Virus record (IMG/VR): IMGVR_UViG_3300043137_000327
Coordinates: 1 to 64,000 of that record
Strand: one strand, 5' to 3'
Source: a virus
DNA length: 64,000 nt
The position numbers and the translations under genes were made by a program. Positions 8,863 to 35,761 of the stretch are shown piece after piece (positions within the stretch are counted from its first letter, which is position 1; the number at the start of each line of letters is the position of its first letter). The notes below the pieces were generated by a model, which was not told where the DNA came from, searched no databases, and was given only the letters and a program-made list of their open reading frames with translations.

Positions 8863-9612
8863 ATGATAAAAGCAGGAAGATACGATTTAAACGAAGCATC
8901 GTTAGGTAGAATATATCAGCACGTTGTTTCTAATCCTAAAATGAAAAATTGGGGAGTCGTAACAGCAAGTAGAGGTGAATTAACATCTGCTGAAAATAAG
9001 CAACGAAACAAAGAATTAGAAGCTGATTTGCGTAAAATGGGATATGGATTTGTTCACGTAGATGGTATGTGGCAAGAATGTAGAAAGCCTGATACCGAAT
9101 ATAAGGATTGTCCGGATGATATGAAAGTTCCAACGCAAGAGAAATCGTTATTCATACCTAATATATCAAAAGAAGATGTTCAATCATTGGGTAAGAAGTA
9201 TGAGCAAGATAGTGTATTATTTGCAGATGAAGAAACTAAAGCAAAAGGTGAGGCAACATTCATCGATTCAAAATCAGGTGAAGCATTTAATATTGGAAAG
9301 TTCTCACCTGGAAAAGTAGCACAAGGATATAGTAAATTGAAAGGTGGGCAAGTATTTACATTTGAACCAAAAGATGAACCACAAAAAGTTGATGAACCAA
9401 AAGTTCAAACAAAAGCTGAGCCGGGTTCTCAAAAGATGGTAGCAAATCCGACACAATTGAAATCACTTTTACCAAAAGGTATAGCTGATAAGATGGTTAA
9501 GAACCCTGAAACGGGCAAAATGATTAAAGTAAAATCCGCTTTGAAGTATGATAAAGAATCGCCAGTATATAAAGCAACTGTTGCTATGGTTAAACAGGCT
9601 TCAAAAAAGTAG
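8863..9612 (+). CDS. hypothetical protein with Lys-rich C-terminus
   Basis: 249-aa ORF followed by a terminator. Confidence 0.5.
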   Translation: MIKAGRYDLNEASLGRIYQHVVSNPKMKNWGVVTASRGELTSAENKQRNKELEADLRKMGYGFVHVDGMWQECRKPDTEYKDCPDDMKVPTQEKSLFIPNISKEDVQSLGKKYEQDSVLFADEETKAKGEATFIDSKSGEAFNIGKFSPGKVAQGYSKLKGGQVFTFEPKDEPQKVDEPKVQTKAEPGSQKMVANPTQLKSLLPKGIADKMVKNPETGKMIKVKSALKYDKESPVYKATVAMVKQASKK

Positions 9613-9637
9613 TATTTCATAACTAATTGATAATCAA

Positions 9638-9664
9638 AGACTTACATATGTAGGTCTTTTTTTA
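9638..9664 (+). terminator. Rho-independent terminator (agacttac-atat-gtaggtct + T7)
   Basis: 8-bp stem (one GU), a 4-nt loop, then TTTTTTT at 9657-9663. Confidence 0.7.
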
Positions 9665-9712
9665 TGCCTAATGTGTTGATAATCAATACATTAAAAAATA
9701 TTTTAATAAATG

Positions 9713-9744
9713 TTTGGCAATACCGATTATTTTTCGTATATTGT
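9713..9744 (+). promoter_or_regulatory. Bacteroidetes-type promoter, class A
   Basis: TTTGGCAATACCGATTATTTTTCGTATATTGT. TTTG 9713-9716, TATATTGT 9737-9744. Confidence 0.6.
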
Positions 9745-9771
9745 ATAACAATTGAGAGTTAAACTATAAAA

Positions 9772-11946
9772 ATGAGTAATATGAGTTATCTATCCAAATT
9801 TAGTTCCAACAAAAAATCTAAAGTATCATCCGCATCATCCTTTTGGGCTGATGAATGGAGTAACTATGATGACGAAATGTTTACCGAATCTTACTATGAT
9901 GCTGAAACGGATTCATTTCAAACAAAAAAGTTATCATCTTCACAATCATCGACTGTGGAAATGTTAAGGTTATCGGCTCACCGAAGAGCAATTGGTAACT
10001 TTGTTAATATCTTAACCAACAAAAATATCCCTGTTAAGTTTTACAAAAAAGGTGATTCTTATACTGATGGTAAATCGGTAGTATTATCAGCCGAAGTTAA
10101 GCCAGAGAAATTTGATGTGGCGGTTGGATTAGCATTGCACGAAGCATCTCACATTAATTTAACAAATTTCGATACCTTTAGTAATTATTCAGTTCCTCAA
10201 AGTTTGAGAGAATTGTTTGAAGTAAAGGGAGTTTACAATGGGGAGGTTTGGCAGTTAATTAAGAACCTTACCAATTGGATTGAAGATAGACGTATTGACC
10301 AATACATCTTCAATACTTGTCCAGGTTATAGAGATTACTATCGTGCTTTATACGATGAATACTTTAATGATAAAGTAATTGATAAGGGTATTGTTTCCGA
10401 TGAATTTACTGATGAAACAATTGATTCATATATGTTCCGTGTTATCAATCTTACAAACCCTAACACTGTTTTAAACAAACTTAAAGGTTTGGCTAAGATT
10501 TATTCATTGGTTGAACTTAAAAACATTAGTAGATTAAAATCAACTTATGATAGTTTATTGGTAGCTGAGCAAATCGCTGAAATCATTGGTTTAGCAATTG
10601 ACCCGCTTCCACAATCACAACCAAAACCACAAGATGGTGGACAAGGTGAGCAAGATAAAGATGGTGAACCACAACAAACCGAAGGTAGTGGTGGTGAAGG
10701 TGGTGAAAGTGAGCAAAATGAGATTGACAATGATGCTTCAGATGATGAACAATCTCCTTCAACAGGCGGTGGTTCTATGAAAAATCAACCAAATATGAAT
10801 GGTAGTGAATCGGATGAAGATAGTAATTCTGAAGCTGATGGTGATAAAGATGATGCCAATGGTAAAGCTAAAGAAACATTATCTGATAATGTTAAGAAGC
10901 AACTTGACAAAAAGATTCAGAATCAGAAAGACTTTATCAATAACCAAATCAAAAAGAAAGCAATTACTAAGAAAGATAATCAGTTGCTTGATTCTGTTGA
11001 AAAAAGTGGTACTGAAATGGTTAGTGTGGGTGGAGAAGTTCAAACTAATGGTGTGTTCCTTAAAGGTACACAATGTATTGTATCAAAACGTATGACCGAA
11101 GAGTTGATGAAAGATTACGCTTTCCCATTCGCTGATTGGAGTACATATGGTGGCGAAGGTAAGTTCTACTCATACAATGAGGCAACTTTAAGAAAGGGTA
11201 TTCAATTGGGTACGTTGTTAGGTAAACGTTTGGCAATTCGTAGTGAAGAGCGTGTTACTGATAATCCCCGCCAAAAGAGTGGTAAGATTGACCGTAGATT
11301 GATTGCCGGACTTGGTTATGATTATGTAAATGTATTCAGTACTAAGGATGTAGATAAATTTAAGAAAGCTAACTTACATATCAGTTTAGATGGTAGTGGT
11401 TCTATGAGTGGTGGTACTTGGGATAAGGCACTTACAACTACAATCGCTATTTGTAAAGCAGCATCGATGGTTTCTAACTTAGATGTTCAGGTTACAATTA
11501 GAGGTATATGGGGTACGAAAGCTTACATCTGCCAGGCATATGATAGTAGAGTTGATAAGTTTGATAAAGTGAAACGTTTGTTCCCTGCACTTAGAGCTAA
11601 TGGTACAACGCCTGAAGGTTTATGTTACGAAGCAACTATGAAATACTTTGTTCCTACTACCAAAGATGTGGATTCATACTTCTTAAACATATGTGATGGT
11701 GAGCCAAACTTTAGTGAAGATGGTACTAACTATTATGGTGATGTTGCCGTACTACATACTCGTAAGATGGTTAAGAAAATTAAAGAGCAGGGTGTTAGAG
11801 TGATGGCTTATTTCGTATCTGATTACGACTCCGACTCATCAAAACGTAAATTCAAAACGATGTATGGTGAAGATAGCCGTTTTATTAACATTAACGATAT
11901 CATGCCAATCACTAAGACTTTGAATGAATTATTCCTTACTAAGTAG
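9772..11946 (+). CDS. VWA-domain protein, CobT-like (acidic central low-complexity region plus C-terminal von Willebrand A / MIDAS)
   Basis: 724-aa ORF. Asp/Glu/Gly/Ser-rich segment (about aa 280-370). MIDAS motif DGSGSMSGGTWDKALTTT (DxSxS). Immediately upstream of a MoxR-type AAA+ ATPase. Confidence 0.6.
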   Translation: MSNMSYLSKFSSNKKSKVSSASSFWADEWSNYDDEMFTESYYDAETDSFQTKKLSSSQSSTVEMLRLSAHRRAIGNFVNILTNKNIPVKFYKKGDSYTDGKSVVLSAEVKPEKFDVAVGLALHEASHINLTNFDTFSNYSVPQSLRELFEVKGVYNGEVWQLIKNLTNWIEDRRIDQYIFNTCPGYRDYYRALYDEYFNDKVIDKGIVSDEFTDETIDSYMFRVINLTNPNTVLNKLKGLAKIYSLVELKNISRLKSTYDSLLVAEQIAEIIGLAIDPLPQSQPKPQDGGQGEQDKDGEPQQTEGSGGEGGESEQNEIDNDASDDEQSPSTGGGSMKNQPNMNGSESDEDSNSEADGDKDDANGKAKETLSDNVKKQLDKKIQNQKDFINNQIKKKAITKKDNQLLDSVEKSGTEMVSVGGEVQTNGVFLKGTQCIVSKRMTEELMKDYAFPFADWSTYGGEGKFYSYNEATLRKGIQLGTLLGKRLAIRSEERVTDNPRQKSGKIDRRLIAGLGYDYVNVFSTKDVDKFKKANLHISLDGSGSMSGGTWDKALTTTIAICKAASMVSNLDVQVTIRGIWGTKAYICQAYDSRVDKFDKVKRLFPALRANGTTPEGLCYEATMKYFVPTTKDVDSYFLNICDGEPNFSEDGTNYYGDVAVLHTRKMVKKIKEQGVRVMAYFVSDYDSDSSKRKFKTMYGEDSRFININDIMPITKTLNELFLTK

Positions 11947-11953
11947 TAAAAAA

Positions 11954-11999
11954 CAATGGGTTCATAACGTGTTGATAATCAATAAGTTATGACCCATTG
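11954..11999 (+). repeat. long imperfect hairpin (caatgggttcataac / gttatgacccattg) enclosing the GTGTTGATAATCAAT motif
   Basis: About 14-bp inverted repeat directly after the CobT-like stop. There is no T-run, so it is probably a structured or regulatory element rather than a classical terminator. Confidence 0.45.
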
Positions 12000-12156
12000 A
12001 TTATCAATGAGTTACACATCTAAACTATACTAATATGAAGAATGGAATACTGACCTTATTGGGTAATTATAATCGATTCCTGCCGGGTTTATGTGAGAAT
12101 TTGACCCCTTATTTATGGTATATTTCTGAAATATTTTTAAAATAATTGATAATATA

Positions 12157-12188
12157 TTTGGCAATACCGATTATATTTCGTATATTTA
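12157..12188 (+). promoter_or_regulatory. Bacteroidetes-type promoter, class A
   Basis: TTTGGCAATACCGATTATATTTCGTATATTTA. TTTG 12157-12160, TATATTTA 12181-12188. Confidence 0.6.
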
Positions 12189-12238
12189 CTATGTAATAAC
12201 AATGAGAGTTATTATTAATCCTTTAAAAAAATAGAGTT

Positions 12239-13462
12239 ATGAGAAATTCAAAAAAAGAAGTGTTAGTAGGTTACACTAATGAAATCTACAAAGTTGAGAA
12301 TGTTGGTAATCGTTTTAACTTAGTTAATACGGCCGGTGAAGTAGAAACCGATTCTACAATCGTTTCATCTTTCCTTAGAAAGAAAGCAAACAAAAGTGGT
12401 TCAGCTATCCGTTCCCACATCAATAAAAACGGACAGAAATCGTTTCGTATGGTTGATATGAATCAATATACGGAAATGTTGGTTAAACCAATCAACACCG
12501 CAATCGCTGAGACTGTGGTTGAAAATCCAACCGACCATACGGCAGTTATCGATTTTATCCACAAAGATGGTATCTCCCTTAAACCTAAGAATCTTATTAT
12601 GACTGAATTGAAGTGGAAATACTTACTTCGTTCAGCAGTTAGAGCAAAAAATATTATGATGACTGGACCTGCAGGTAGTGGTAAAACTATGGCAGCTAAA
12701 GCATTAGTTGAAGCTCTTAATCGCCCGTTCTTCTACTTTAACTTAGGAGCAACGCAAGACCCCAGAGCATCACTTATTGGTAATACTCACTTCAGTAAAG
12801 CTGATGGTACTTACTTCAACGAATCAGCATTCGTTAAAGCTATTAAGACTCCGTATTCAGTTATCTTATTGGATGAGTTATCCCGTTCACATCCCGAAGC
12901 ATGGAATATCTTAATGACTGTGTTAGACCAAACCCAACGTTACTTACGTTTGGATGAGGCTGTTGATTCACCAATCGTTAAAGTAGCCGAAGGTGTTACC
13001 TTTATCGCTACCGCTAACATCGGTAATGAATTTACATCGACACGTGTTCTTGACCGTGCATTGGTTGACCGTTTCGTAACGATTGAGGTTGATGTGTTGA
13101 ACGCTGAGCAAGAGCTTGAATTACTTACTATGTTGTATCCCGATACAAACGCTGAGGACTTAAGAGCAATTGCCGAAATCACTCATCACACTCGTGAGCA
13201 AATCAAATCCGATGTGGGTAAAATTAGCACAGCAGTATCGACTCGTACTTCGGTAGAGATGGCTGGATTGATTTACGATGGGTTCAACTTAATCGAAGCA
13301 GCTGAAGTTGCTATCTTCCCAATGTATTCGCAAGATGGTGGTATGGATTCAGAACGTACTTACATCAAACAATTAGTTCAAAAGTATGTAAGAGCTGAAG
13401 ATAATTCAGGCTTATATGATAACGTTGTGGAAGAACCACAAAAGGATGAAATTGTTTGGTAA
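12239..13462 (+). CDS. MoxR-family AAA+ ATPase, CobS-like
   Basis: 407-aa ORF. Walker A MMTGPAGSGKTMAAKAL, Walker B ILLDELSRSHPEAWN, sensor region ATANIGNEF. Partner of the upstream VWA protein. Confidence 0.7.
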   Translation: MRNSKKEVLVGYTNEIYKVENVGNRFNLVNTAGEVETDSTIVSSFLRKKANKSGSAIRSHINKNGQKSFRMVDMNQYTEMLVKPINTAIAETVVENPTDHTAVIDFIHKDGISLKPKNLIMTELKWKYLLRSAVRAKNIMMTGPAGSGKTMAAKALVEALNRPFFYFNLGATQDPRASLIGNTHFSKADGTYFNESAFVKAIKTPYSVILLDELSRSHPEAWNILMTVLDQTQRYLRLDEAVDSPIVKVAEGVTFIATANIGNEFTSTRVLDRALVDRFVTIEVDVLNAEQELELLTMLYPDTNAEDLRAIAEITHHTREQIKSDVGKISTAVSTRTSVEMAGLIYDGFNLIEAAEVAIFPMYSQDGGMDSERTYIKQLVQKYVRAEDNSGLYDNVVEEPQKDEIVW

Positions 13463-30776: not shown

Positions 30777-31001
30777 ATGAATATTAAAAAGAATGCAATA
30801 GGGTTTAAAAGAATAACACGCACTACATACATAACAAAGGGATGGCGTAGCGTAAGTGGATATAAGACGAGAGGATTTCGAAATAGAGTTAGGTTAGTAA
30901 ATAGAAGTAGAACATACATTGCAAATCCCAAAATAACCCAACATGTGAAACGAAACCGAATACACAAAATGGTTGTAAAGAGTAAACGAATTACATTATG
31001 A
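30777..31001 (+). CDS. hypothetical highly basic protein (possible nucleic-acid binding)
   Basis: 74-aa ORF rich in R/K. Confidence 0.35.
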   Translation: MNIKKNAIGFKRITRTTYITKGWRSVSGYKTRGFRNRVRLVNRSRTYIANPKITQHVKRNRIHKMVVKSKRITL

Positions 31002-31393: not shown

Positions 31394-31429
31394 TAATATA
31401 TAATTAAAAGGATTAATTAAAAATAGTTT

Positions 31430-31567
31430 ATGAAAACGAATTTCAAAGAAAAATTAGGTTATTGGGCAGAAACGTTACTTATGTTCGGTGGATTGATGAT
31501 AGGCATCGCAATGGTATGTGGTGGGTTCTATATGATATATACCATTTTCAAAGCCATATTCAACTAA
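31430..31567 (+). CDS. small membrane protein (45 aa)
   Basis: Unannotated ORF MKTNFKEKLGYWAETLLMFGGLMIGIAMVCGGFYMIYTIFKAIFN. Confidence 0.3.
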   Translation: MKTNFKEKLGYWAETLLMFGGLMIGIAMVCGGFYMIYTIFKAIFN

Positions 31568-31585
31568 TCAAATACAACAAACGAA

Positions 31586-31816
31586 ATGGATAAGGTAGTA
31601 CAAAGGATATTGGAATTGAAAAAAGAAATCCAAACTCCTAACATCAAATTGGCAATTCAAAAGTTGCAACAATCCCTATGTGAATCAAATACAAAGATTA
31701 GCGCATCGGAAAAGAAGGATAAAAATAATTTAGCTAATATTGACATTGAGAATGATATCAGTAAAGTAAAAGATGAAGATATAGAAGCATTCCTTTTTAA
31801 TAGGTATAATAGATAA
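31586..31816 (+). CDS. hypothetical protein
   Basis: 76-aa ORF. Confidence 0.35.
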   Translation: MDKVVQRILELKKEIQTPNIKLAIQKLQQSLCESNTKISASEKKDKNNLANIDIENDISKVKDEDIEAFLFNRYNR

Positions 31817-31820
31817 GAGT

Positions 31821-32180
31821 ATGAATAACACAGCCATAGTATGGATGATAGTAACGCTAGTATGGATAGTATCCCTATATAAGATAGTAGGTATCCATAA
31901 GATAGTAAACGTATTAACTATGTTTAAAACAAAAGCGTATTGGAATCCCTTATACAATAAGATAGAGGCGATAAGCTGGATTAGTAAGATAGGAATCATA
32001 GTACCGGGCTTAGTATGGGGAAAAGAAATTTGGTACTTACACATCGTAACCCTGATATCGAGCTCCTTACTGATATGGGTAAAGGCTGAGAAAGGATTAC
32101 CTACGTTAATAGTATTCAATACGATATGGATAGGGATAAGCAGTTGGGTATTGGTTAAGAATATCTTATTACATTTATAA
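31821..32180 (+). CDS. hypothetical integral membrane protein
   Basis: 119-aa ORF with four hydrophobic helices (W-rich). Confidence 0.45.
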   Translation: MNNTAIVWMIVTLVWIVSLYKIVGIHKIVNVLTMFKTKAYWNPLYNKIEAISWISKIGIIVPGLVWGKEIWYLHIVTLISSSLLIWVKAEKGLPTLIVFNTIWIGISSWVLVKNILLHL

Positions 32181-32558
32181 GGAGTATAAACAATAATAGA
32201 TAAGGGATAGTGAGTAGAAGATTAGGGAATAGAAGGGATTGGATTGAATTGGGTTTAAGCGTATTAATGATGGGTAGTGTAGTATTTGTATTCCTTAATG
32301 GATTGGTACACATAATCAATTGGATATGGGGTATCTAAGAGCATAGCAGTGTATATCAGCTGATGCAGTATCAAAATATAATCATAAGAGTAAATTAGTG
32401 GTAAAAAGTGGGGATTTGTGTTAAAGTGTGTGAGGGAATCCAAAGATGTCAAAATATATATGTACATACTAACACACTACAATAAAATCATAACACTATA
32501 TTAGAGTGTTAAAAAGAATCAGTATATCCCACCCTTTTGCGTTCTTAGCAAAAAAAAA

Positions 32559-32757
32559 TTATCCACAGCCATTTTCACATTTGTTAGTAACTTTATTTGG
32601 TTACAAAAGTAAATCGGGTATACAAATGTACCGCTCCGAAAGCGTGGAGGCGTCTACATTCTGCTTCGGTCGTGCGCCGCACAGACACCGCACTGCAAAG
32701 GATTGCATCGGAATACTGAATAAAAATCAAAATTGTTAATAAAAAAAGTTATCCACA
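32559..32757 (+). promoter_or_regulatory. pair of perfect DnaA-box 9-mers (TTATCCACA at 32559-32567 and 32749-32757) bracketing a GC-rich structured island. Candidate replication origin or ncRNA locus
   Basis: Two identical 9/9 matches to the DnaA-box consensus, with similar flanks (AAAAAATTATCCACAGCC and AAAAAGTTATCCACACCCC), in the same orientation, inside an 830-bp non-coding stretch. Confidence 0.35.
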
Positions 32758-32761
32758 CCCC

Positions 32762-32792
32762 TTGGATATATGGACTTTTTTTCGTATCTTTA
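32762..32792 (+). promoter_or_regulatory. Bacteroidetes-type promoter with conserved +1 block (TCGTATCTTTATAGGGTGG)
   Basis: TTGG 32762-32765, TATCTTTA 32785-32792. The same TCGTATCTTTnnAGGGTGG block recurs at 49340-49360. It leads into about 220 nt with no ORF. Confidence 0.4.
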
Positions 32793-33012
32793 TAGGGTGG
32801 AAGGGCGGGAGTAGAGAAGCTGAGAGCTCTGCTAACTGATTGATTCTCAATGGCTCTGGCTAACTCGTTGGTTTCCAATAAAAAATATTTCACATTTCCA
32901 AAAAATAAATGATAAATAATTAGGCTATTACGGCAGAATTGTCTATCTTTATTATATAAAGGGAGAGAGAGTAAAAGACCTCCCATCACTTAAAATCTAA
33001 AATATAAACGAT

Positions 33013-33348
33013 ATGAGTTACACTTCAATGAATTACGAAAGGTTTGGTTTGTACAAAAACATTCCAGCTACTAAACAGCCTGTTAAGAAGGCAGGTTTAC
33101 CTACTATTACTTTTACTGATATGTTTGGTAGAAACTTCTTTTTTCCTTATCGTACTAAAAAACAACGTTCCGAAATTTCAGACATTTTGAGGTTGTTAAA
33201 GGCTGAGAATAATCAATTGAATCGTATTCTTTCCGACTATTCAGTTAAGATGGGTAAGTATGTGAATGAGAGCAAGTTGAGAGCTGAATTAAAAACAGCG
33301 TTTGGTTTTTCAAAATCGAATATCGACTCAATCTTATCTATCCACTAA
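33013..33348 (+). CDS. hypothetical protein
   Basis: 111-aa ORF. Confidence 0.45.
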   Translation: MSYTSMNYERFGLYKNIPATKQPVKKAGLPTITFTDMFGRNFFFPYRTKKQRSEISDILRLLKAENNQLNRILSDYSVKMGKYVNESKLRAELKTAFGFSKSNIDSILSIH

Positions 33349-33931: not shown

Positions 33932-34132
33932 ATGAGTACTATGAAATTAAAAGAGTTTATGTTTACGTTTGAAGGTGGTGGATGGAATACCGTTTGGGCT
34001 AAGACACGTAAGGGAGCAGTTAAGGCTGCACTGAAAGAGTATAAGGATTCACCTACATTAAATCCTATTCCATCTTCAGTACACCAAGCAACTGAAGCAG
34101 GTTTGAAATCGGCATTATCATTATTCTATTAA
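33932..34132 (+). CDS. hypothetical protein
   Basis: 66-aa ORF. Confidence 0.35.
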   Translation: MSTMKLKEFMFTFEGGGWNTVWAKTRKGAVKAALKEYKDSPTLNPIPSSVHQATEAGLKSALSLFY

Positions 34133-34145
34133 AAATCAATTAGTT

Positions 34146-34445
34146 ATGAGTAAGAAAATCACACAAGAATCAGTTCAGGCATTTATAGATTGTAGACCCT
34201 TTAAGAAATCTAATATGGAAGTAGTAAGGGAAGGCACCATATACTATCTAAAGCTATTCGGAAATAAGATAGCAGCTATCGAAGCAGATGGTCGTATGTG
34301 GGTATCCAACGCTGGATGGAAAACTAAGACTACAAAGGAGAGGTTAAATGGATTGCCAGGCGTAAGTGTTAACCAAAAGGATTGGGGATGGTATCTGAAT
34401 GGGATGCCTTGGGATGGTAAACCCATCTTTATCACCAAATTCTAA
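34146..34445 (+). CDS. hypothetical protein
   Basis: 99-aa ORF. Confidence 0.4.
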   Translation: MSKKITQESVQAFIDCRPFKKSNMEVVREGTIYYLKLFGNKIAAIEADGRMWVSNAGWKTKTTKERLNGLPGVSVNQKDWGWYLNGMPWDGKPIFITKF

Positions 34446-34496
34446 TCCATTGATTATCAACACGTTAGAAAAACTTTAAAAATAATCACTCAAATG

Positions 34497-34528
34497 TTTG
34501 GCAATACCGAATTTATTTCGTATATTTA
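34497..34528 (+). promoter_or_regulatory. Bacteroidetes-type promoter, class A
   Basis: TTTGGCAATACCGAATTTATTTCGTATATTTA. Preceded at 34446-34460 by the inverted GTGTTGATAATCAAT motif. Confidence 0.6.
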
Positions 34529-34536
34529 CTAAGTAA

Positions 34537-34917
34537 ATGAGAGACAATAAAACAATTAATATGAGTTATACTATTCCACGCGGTTACACTATTACCCCAA
34601 AAGTGAAGTTCTTACGAACTAAGGAAGGCAAGAAACGTACACAATTAGTAGAGTTAACCCACAAACGTAAGGGTATCGCTAAACTATTCGGTAACGAAGA
34701 GTACGCCATTAAGTACATCCAATCATTGGAAATCAATAAGGTAACATCCAACGCCTTAGCCGGTAAGGGAGCACCATCCATTGGTAAACACGCAATACTA
34801 TTAGCCGGCAAAGATGCAGTAGCTGATAAAGAGCTAAATGGTATATACGATGATATGACTAATGAGGAGGCGACTCAATTGAACAATCCCTTTTACCAAC
34901 CCTTAAAATTAATCTAA
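34537..34917 (+). CDS. hypothetical protein (start may be the ATG at 34561)
   Basis: 126-aa ORF directly downstream of a class A promoter. Confidence 0.45.
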   Translation: MRDNKTINMSYTIPRGYTITPKVKFLRTKEGKKRTQLVELTHKRKGIAKLFGNEEYAIKYIQSLEINKVTSNALAGKGAPSIGKHAILLAGKDAVADKELNGIYDDMTNEEATQLNNPFYQPLKLI

Positions 34918-35524: not shown

Positions 35525-35761
35525 ATGGCTAACAAAGCAAACAACAAAAAGGCAGCAAGCAAGGTAACATCTAAGGTTACAAGTAAGAACCGTAAAGCAC
35601 CTAAGAAGGTAGCAACTACTTACGAAACACCAGTAGCTAACATCCAAAAGATTACATACGCATCAGGCCGTGTATCTTATAGAGTTAGAGTAGCAGGTGA
35701 ATCTCAATCTACAACTTCTTTAAAGAAGGCTCGTGAGATTAAGAGAGAATTGTTCGCCTAA
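35525..35761 (+). CDS. small basic protein (possible histone-like DNA-binding protein)
   Basis: 78-aa ORF with a K/A/S-rich N-terminus (KVTSKVTSKNRKAPKK). Followed by the GC hairpin gggaccgg...ccggtccc (35775-35808). Confidence 0.4.
   Translation: MANKANNKKAASKVTSKVTSKNRKAPKKVATTYETPVANIQKITYASGRVSYRVRVAGESQSTTSLKKAREIKRELFA

Follow-up and report, generated by a model that had tools for sequence, protein, structure and literature searches.

The DNA analyzed here, a window of 64,000 nucleotides, derives from a T4-like jumbo myovirus that has not been cultured. The window includes 19 tRNA genes and encodes, among other proteins, an RNA ligase, a GroEL and a baseplate wedge protein, and the gene for a MoxR/CobS-like AAA+ protein adjoins that for a 724-amino-acid CobT-like protein. 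All genes of the window lie on the + strand, the G+C content is 32%, and the DNA outside open reading frames (ORFs) and tRNA genes amounts to 8.4% of the total. An Rfam scan of the window reported tRNAs exclusively, and the interval 31400-33100 gave no Rfam match of any kind. Megablast and tblastn searches found no close cultured relative among deposited phages, and the relatives used for comparison are 80 IMG/VR loci that were fetched via the CobS-like protein (54-88% identity; contigs up to 288 kb).

Copies of the motif in the window

The initial annotation of this DNA had proposed that a 15-mer with a palindromic core recurs upstream of promoters and serves as an operator. The recurrence itself is confirmed. 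The exact 15-mer GTGTTGATAATCAAT is present in three copies, at 9673-9687 (+), 11969-11983 (+) and 34449-34463 (-), and when up to two mismatches are allowed there are four matches, compared to 0.52 expected from shuffled sequences, none of which reached four. The sites are therefore real, but the positions first assigned to them were off by one to nine bases (one to three for the three exact copies). Likewise, the inverted copy placed at 11995-12009 matches in its 11-bp core plus one base and not over the full 15-mer, as ATTGATTATCAATGA at 11996-12010 agrees with it at 12 of 15 positions, and the half-site AATTGATAATCAAAG does exist, at 9625-9639 rather than at 9634-9648. The palindromic core TTGATNATCAA (TTGAT.ATCAA) occurs exactly five times in the window (9627, 9676, 11972, 11997 and 34450), in each case within one of three intergenic gaps. 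A weight-matrix scan finds six sites of at least 14 bits where 0.4 are expected, namely the five core-bearing sites and a further one at 32833-32857, such that the window holds five strong dyad copies and one to three degenerate ones. A motif scan with a test for positional enrichment, as had been suggested for this sequence, thus places every copy in non-coding DNA, which is only 8.4% of the window.

On one strand, each exact 15-mer contains TTATCAACA (9674-9682, 11970-11978 and 34454-34462), which is one mismatch from a DnaA box. A DnaA-box reading of the 15-mers was dropped because the GTG flank that creates TTATCAACA is not general in the relatives. The number of DnaA boxes in the window is that expected by chance.

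Two dyad sites (here and below given without strand) precede the gene for the CobT-like protein (9772-11946). Site 1, TAACTAATTGATAATCAAAGACTTA (9620-9644; 26.9 bits), begins 8 bp past the stop codon of the ORF at 8863-9612, and both of its halves match the pattern WATCAANNNNTTR; two relatives (L161 and L163) have the identical sequence ahead of cobT. The right half of site 1 extends into the 5′ arm of a hairpin with a T-run that resembles an intrinsic terminator (9636-9666, + strand; identified by terminator scan and folding) and that lies between sites 1 and 2. Site 2 (9669-9693; 22.4 bits) holds the 15-mer at 9673-9687, and a distance of 32 bp separates its center from the -33 TTTG of a downstream Bacteroidota-type promoter, TTTGGCAATACCGATTATTTTTCGTATATT, at 9713-9742 (+).

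Sites 3 and 4 follow the cobT-like gene. Site 3 (11965-11989; 28.6 bits), which holds the 15-mer at 11969-11983, begins 19 bp past the cobT-like stop codon, a position that is kept in relatives down to 56% CobS identity, and it is abutted by site 4 (11990-12014; 30.4 bits), 25 bp away from center to center. The long hairpin noted at 11954-11999 holds up in silico (-23 kcal/mol, z = -4.7), with the first copy at its apex and its 3′ arm overlapped by the second. The promoter of the MoxR/CobS-like AAA+ gene (12239-13462) is at 12157-12186 (+), 143-168 bp from these sites. Because a 36-amino-acid ORF, MKNGILTLLGNYNRFLPGLCENLTPYLWYISEIFLK (12035-12145), intervenes, the sites at 11965-12014 are not directly beside the cobS promoter. 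This ORF is 47% identical in the closest relative (L119).

Site 5 (34443-34467; 26.8 bits) holds the minus-strand 15-mer at 34449-34463. The first three bases of the site, TAA, double as the stop codon of the ORF at 34146-34445, and 42 bp separate its center from the -33 TTTG of the downstream promoter TTTGGCAATACCGAATTTATTTCGTATATT at 34497-34526 (+), which precedes the ORF at 34537-34917. Nearby, between the ORFs at 33932-34132 and 34146-34445, there is a half-site, AATCAATTAGTTA (34122-34146; 11.4 bits), of which one half matches WATCAANNNNTTR.

A degenerate dyad, TAACTGATTGATTCTCAATGGCTCT (32833-32857; 20.9 bits), and a weaker neighbor (32861-32885; 9.8 bits) reside in a long gap at 32440-33012. 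This gap of about 570 bp has a G+C content of 41%, compared to 32% for the window, and its sole ORF of at least 60 amino acids, a GTG-start frame at 32506-32739 (+), is suspected to be spurious. It also contains the promoter-like sequence TTTTTCGTATCTTTA and two perfect DnaA boxes, TTATCCACA, at 32559 and 32749, and may represent an origin region or the gene of a small RNA.

Conservation of the dyad and its spacing from promoters

In the relatives, the conserved unit extends to 25 bp, TAACT-NN-TTGA-(A/T-rich N3)-TCAA-NN-AGTTA, and the 15-mer is the center of this conserved dyad. The core occurs 35 times in 808 kb of related sequence, where about three matches are estimated by chance, and its locations, upstream of cobT and in the interval from cobT to cobS, are shared by the relatives. 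Applied to the window together with the 80 loci, the weight matrix identifies 116 sites, of which 109 are intergenic, even though 84% of this sequence consists of + strand ORFs. Both the conservation in related phages and the exclusion from coding sequence that had been anticipated are therefore borne out. Sites occur singly or in arrays of two to six, with center-to-center spacings that cluster at 25-28, 35-41 and 49-51 bp, and the arrays upstream of cobT and cobS persist despite a swapped gene order (L189 and L195). No conservation was found beyond the 25-mer, and for this reason we rejected a larger mobile element or MITE as its source. Immediately flanking the 25-mer there is a weak ttta...taaa preference in genomes that are AT-rich anyway.

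Symmetry of this kind could reflect either base pairing within one strand or recognition by a dimeric protein. At the variable mirror positions of the dyad (4/22, 5/21, 6/20 and 7/19), Watson-Crick pairs are as frequent as expected from shuffled partner columns, G-T combinations do not exceed A-C combinations on the sense strand, and the lack of covariation was repeated on four data sets. Since the paired positions do not covary, we favor a protein site on double-stranded DNA over an RNA hairpin, and the pattern appears to be the signature of a dimeric protein that would read the duplex.

Each of the three core-bearing gaps also contains a near-identical promoter, TTTGGCAATACCGA..TTTCGTATATT, of the Bacteroidota type, with TTTG at -33 and TAnnTT at -7. 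The distances from motif start to the downstream promoter TTTGG are 40, 86, 160, 188 and 48 bp for the five window copies, so that the location upstream of a promoter stands as first described, with a measured range of 40-188 bp in place of 40-180 bp. In the phage loci, site centers concentrate at distances of 20-100 bp ahead of the -33 element, and the interval from -60 to +20 contains none. Because sites are absent from the promoter core, promoter occlusion is not indicated. Distances of the promoter-proximal sites peak at 21, 32, 43 and 54 bp, and a Rayleigh test for a period of 10.5-11 bp yields p ~1e-5 for 78 cases and ~3e-3 for 54 non-redundant ones. This spacing suggests a face-of-helix dependence with a phase of about 10.5 bp, as a modest signal from cases that are mutually related. 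Sites are found at only three or four of the approximately 13 similar promoters in the window. Taken together, the dyad, its presence in relatives and the promoter distances bear out the original view of a dyad-symmetric, promoter-proximal site, presumably for a DNA-binding protein.

A separate conserved block, (A)ATGAGAG / ATTGAGAG, is located approximately 10-15 nucleotides downstream of the -7 element of the window promoters (9743-9771, 12187-12238 and 34527-34536) and of those in many relatives. It may function as a leader or as a signal for translation.

Distribution beyond the phage lineage

A search of IMG/VR with the exact 15-mer gives at least 118 single matches, most of them due to chance, and we therefore used a strict dyad pattern, TAACTNNTTGATNATCAANNAGTTA, in which 20 bases are specified and for which few chance matches are estimated per collection. 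This pattern matches at least 120 IMG/VR stretches and at least 120 bacterial stretches. Among the 120 bacterial stretches listed, 108 are from Bacteroidota, six from Fibrobacter, three from the PVC group and three from other or unknown taxa, and none is from Proteobacteria, Firmicutes or Actinobacteria. Some of the bacterial matches come from genomes with 53-59% GC. No genes are common to the bacterial loci and the window, and no regulator gene recurs beside the bacterial sites among 426 flanking ORFs. A search of PLSDB returned weak chance matches exclusively. The site is thus not private to this phage lineage, as the same dyad is present in Bacteroidota chromosomes, Rep_3 replicons, crAssphage and Lak megaphages.

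The contexts of these sites fall into a few kinds. First, in three plasmid-like Rep_3 replicons whose iterons are mutually unrelated, the site lies 10-12 bp from arrays of 21-22-bp iterons, and one of these replicons, a contig of 4.4 kb, has no further DNA-binding gene. Second, in several Bacteroidales metagenome-assembled genomes (MAGs; L324, L392, L393, L400 and L416) the site directly follows the mnmE stop codon, with a conserved GAACCACGCGTGGTTC palindrome and an HTH_17 gene downstream, suggesting that it marks the end of an integrated mobile element. In Emticicia and Spirosomataceae the site is beside tRNA 3′ ends, and in three Fibrobacter MAGs it is at a syntenic spot. Third, among deposited phages, 27 of the best 32 matches belong to crAssphage, crAss-like phages or Prevotella Lak megaphages. 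In crAssphage BK010471.1 (95.6-96.2 kb; L439), the dyad at L439 1060-1084 has two 34-nucleotide direct repeats (974-1007 and 1017-1050) on one side and a palindromic, AT-rich stretch on the other. It precedes the RepL-like gene gp88 by about 130 bp, and the layout looks like a replication origin. Finally, the Microscillaceae MAG Prado074 (JALONJ01..., within L320-L437) is the source of 40 of the first 120 bacterial matches. Its contigs contain 3-12 sites per 8 kb, roughly one per kb, including convergent gaps and some ORFs, and Prado074 is thus a genome with a highly iterated palindrome. An iteron-adjacent origin, element ends and phage early promoters are the classic contexts of integration host factor (IHF).

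Candidate binding proteins

The sequence of the dyad resembles an IHF site as well. In an IHF site, WATCAA starts near the center and TTR follows 4 bp further 3′, and the protein intercalates two prolines at AA steps that are 9 bp apart in the middle of the site. Each half of the dyad, W-ATCAA-NNAG-TTA, reproduces the IHF consensus of E. coli, WATCAA-N4-TTR, and the two halves are mirror images about W. Positions 13-18 (W-A-T-C-A-A) each have a frequency of 0.98, which follows from the construction of the seed set, and they are kept in the weight-matrix matches; positions 23-25 (T, T and A) have frequencies of 0.79, 0.84 and 0.86 on both halves and form the TTR element 4 bp 3′ of WATCAA. With W13 at the center, the T8T9 and A17A18 steps are 9 bp apart and TTA occupies +10 to +12. 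In the window, all 11 non-coding matches to WATCAANNNNTTR fall within the dyads or the half-site at 34134. The dyad can accordingly be read as an IHF site made symmetric, and because the consensus is present on both halves it would suit a homodimer rather than an alpha/beta heterodimer. Moreover, it appears to fit a symmetric architectural site of the IHF/HU family better than any transcription-factor operator that we can name.

Because carriers are as varied as phages, plasmids and chromosomes, the binder is almost certainly host-coded or universal. Bacteroidetes possess one to three classical HU/IHF-like proteins, including BHFa, the host factor for the integration of CTnDOT. We therefore propose that the dyad is bound by an HU/IHF-family protein of the host and serves as an architectural element in front of early promoters, a proposal that we regard as evenly balanced between right and wrong. 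The most likely binder would be a homodimeric HU/IHF-family (DNABII) bending protein of Bacteroidota/FCB bacteria. Two halves that share the central W would be bound, with the TT/AA steps 9 bp apart as kink points for IHF-type proline arms. One to three copies, located 20-100 bp upstream of early promoters that would be used by the host sigma factor (those of the cobT-like gene, the cobS-like gene and ORF 34537), would each be sharply bent into an architectural upstream element. This bend would probably stimulate or tune promoter use, and it could possibly insulate the promoter from read-through or aid origin function. We infer the identity of the binder, the bending of the DNA and the direction of the effect on transcription; the motif itself is real and functional.

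Several known systems are similar in part. IHF sites lie upstream of early phage promoters such as lambda pL and Mu Pe. The dyad shares with IHF sites the consensus, base for base in each half, a central W, TTR at +10 to +12, TT/AA steps 9 bp apart, and the same contexts (plasmid iterons, the ends of integrative elements and positions upstream of phage early promoters). It differs in that both halves carry the consensus as a perfect dyad, in an extra conserved AG before TTA, in its arrays at 25-50 bp spacing, and in its carriers, which are Bacteroidota/FCB rather than the Proteobacteria of IHF. TF1 of phage SPO1 is an HU/IHF-family protein with preferred sites in the early promoter regions of a large phage, and it is phage-coded and requires hydroxymethyluracil DNA. 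A review describes TF1 as an HU-like phage protein. In contrast to SPO1, no HU/IHF gene is present in this window and the dyad sites are common to the host.

As the main alternative, another host-encoded dimeric protein, outside the HU/IHF family, might recognize the dyad. This could be a MarR-type winged-helix or ribbon-helix-helix transcription factor that is conserved in Bacteroidota and exploited by phages and plasmids, and we consider such a binder rather unlikely. Dyad symmetry without covariation and the host-wide distribution of the motif would be expected for it also, and abutting sites at 25-28 bp suit contiguous dimers. The latter spacing bears on IHF-type binding as well, because an IHF U-turn has a footprint of about 35 bp and simultaneous occupancy of sites 25-28 bp apart is doubtful. 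Furthermore, the consensus of FabT, a MarR-family protein, ANTTTGATTATCAAATT, contains the identical 11-bp core, TTGATTATCAA, and a winged-helix dimer could therefore read the site. However, the FabT box of streptococci (ANT-TTGATTATCAA-ATT) does not match the dyad in flanks, taxon or genes; FabT is confined to Streptococcaceae and Enterococcaceae, where its box is at fatty-acid synthesis promoters. The conserved flanks of the dyad at +/-8 to +/-12 (AGTTA) correspond instead to the position of TTR in IHF sites. The contexts (iterons, element ends and the crAssphage rep region) are architectural rather than those of a regulon, one Microscillaceae MAG has approximately one site per kb, convergent gaps included, and no regulator gene recurs next to the sites.

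FabT is the one relevant result of literature string searches for the motif. FNR/CRP-family proteins use the box TTGAT-N4-ATCAA, in which the pentamer half-sites are the same but the spacer is 4 bp, compared to 1 bp in the dyad, and neither TTGAT-N2-ATCAA nor TTGATATCAA occurs in the window. The Fur box, FNR box, dif site, parS and C-boxes of restriction-modification systems were dropped because of mismatches in spacing or flanks.

We consider it highly unlikely that the site serves as the operator of a transcription factor or partition protein of the phage lineage itself, as the initial annotation had proposed. The dyad is indeed promoter-proximal and conserved in related phages, and two unrelated viral contigs (L208 and L270) carry the motif together with an HU/IHF-like protein gene of their own. 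However, unrelated phages, plasmids and chromosomes that have no genes in common with the window share the motif, and the 4.4-kb Rep_3 contig has it with no extra DNA-binding gene. The promoter core is never overlapped, such that an operator in the usual sense is not supported, and neither a helix-turn-helix nor an HU gene is present among the approximately 25 window proteins scanned. A partition-protein site likewise lacks support, as there is no ParB-like gene among these proteins. Phmmer searches with HupA, IhfA, IhfB and TF1 probes found no HU/IHF gene in the 64-kb window, and a Pfam scan of the proteins flanking the sites and of the small basic proteins encoded at 30777 and 35525, which had been put forward as binders, detected no DNA-binding domain. 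Given that they have no Pfam match and that the motif is host-wide, the latter two are unlikely to be the binders.

Two observations concern proteins of these kinds. The ORF at 35525-35761 encodes a 78-amino-acid basic protein with a lysine-rich N-terminus, whose C-terminal part, by eye, resembles a small beta-sheet-plus-helix DNA-binding module. In L208, positions 9968-11529 hold a tyrosine-recombinase-like gene immediately followed by the gene for a 173-amino-acid Bac_DNA_binding (HU/IHF) protein.

Some copies outside phages may also be hairpins or terminators, because the single-copy bacterial sites have complementary flanks in about 27% of cases, compared to 3% after shuffling, and are enriched for A/T runs. 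Pairing between the two sites of 49-51-bp pairs has p ~0.014, a weak result that is confounded by relatedness. For the phage copies, which exhibit no flank complementarity and no T-run enrichment, an RNA hairpin or terminator was rejected, and the sole terminator that the window contains, at 9636-9666, is a hairpin of its own. Two known arrangements are relevant here. In E. coli, RIB/RIP elements at the 3′ ends of operons hold an IHF site inside inverted REP units. Similarly, about a quarter of the single-copy bacterial sites form part of a longer inverted repeat that has A/T runs and is located downstream of a gene, but they do not have REP-like conserved flanks, and the phage copies have no outer inverted repeat. 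The PeSL cassettes of T4-type phages consist of an intergenic stem-loop and then an early promoter, at places where genes are gained or lost, recur in T4-like genomes and have a layout similar to that of the phage loci. Their stem-loops, which are not the same from one phage pair to another, are short terminator hairpins of the G/C type, whereas the dyad is a specific 25-mer kept across phyla without covariation and also outside phages.

The least probable reading, which we regard as very improbable indeed, is a function of the site as a hairpin of RNA or single-stranded DNA (for instance a terminator, an element for processing or stability, or a REP- or PeSL-like stem-loop cassette that also mediates recombination): the palindromes do fold well in silico, sites do directly follow stop codons, the flanks of single-copy bacterial sites are complementary with A/T runs, and stem-loop plus early-promoter cassettes are known in T4-type phages, but the phage copies have neither covariation, a bias of G-U over A-C, flank complementarity nor a T-run, the predicted stability varies widely, from -5.4 kcal/mol (34443) to -23 (11954), the sequence itself rather than just its pairing is kept across phyla, and the site also adjoins iterons.

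Returning to a host HU/IHF-family binder, we propose tentatively, judging the balance to tilt slightly against it, that a homodimeric IHF-like protein of Bacteroidota and neighboring FCB/PVC bacteria recognizes the dyad as a phylum-wide code that was previously undescribed, and that this code marks the origins of plasmids and crAssphage, the ends of integrative elements and the early promoters of unrelated phages. These phages would include T4-like jumbo phages, Crassvirales and Lak megaphages, and the code would extend to the iterated palindrome in at least one Microscillaceae genome.

For the window itself, the supposed operator would become a docking site for a host factor, with host HU/IHF-like proteins as the candidates in place of small basic phage proteins. 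The weight of the dyad is moderate for this window alone and greater as a Bacteroidota-wide element. If the proposal is true, it would define, in a form that can be tested, the sequence code of a nucleoid or architectural protein in Bacteroidota, a phylum for which such specificity is essentially unknown. It would also offer a cheap marker with which to predict where plasmids, integrative elements and phages of Bacteroidota, crAssphage and Lak megaphages included, have their replication origins, attachment regions and strong early promoters. Finally, it would explain how very different phages plug into one host factor.
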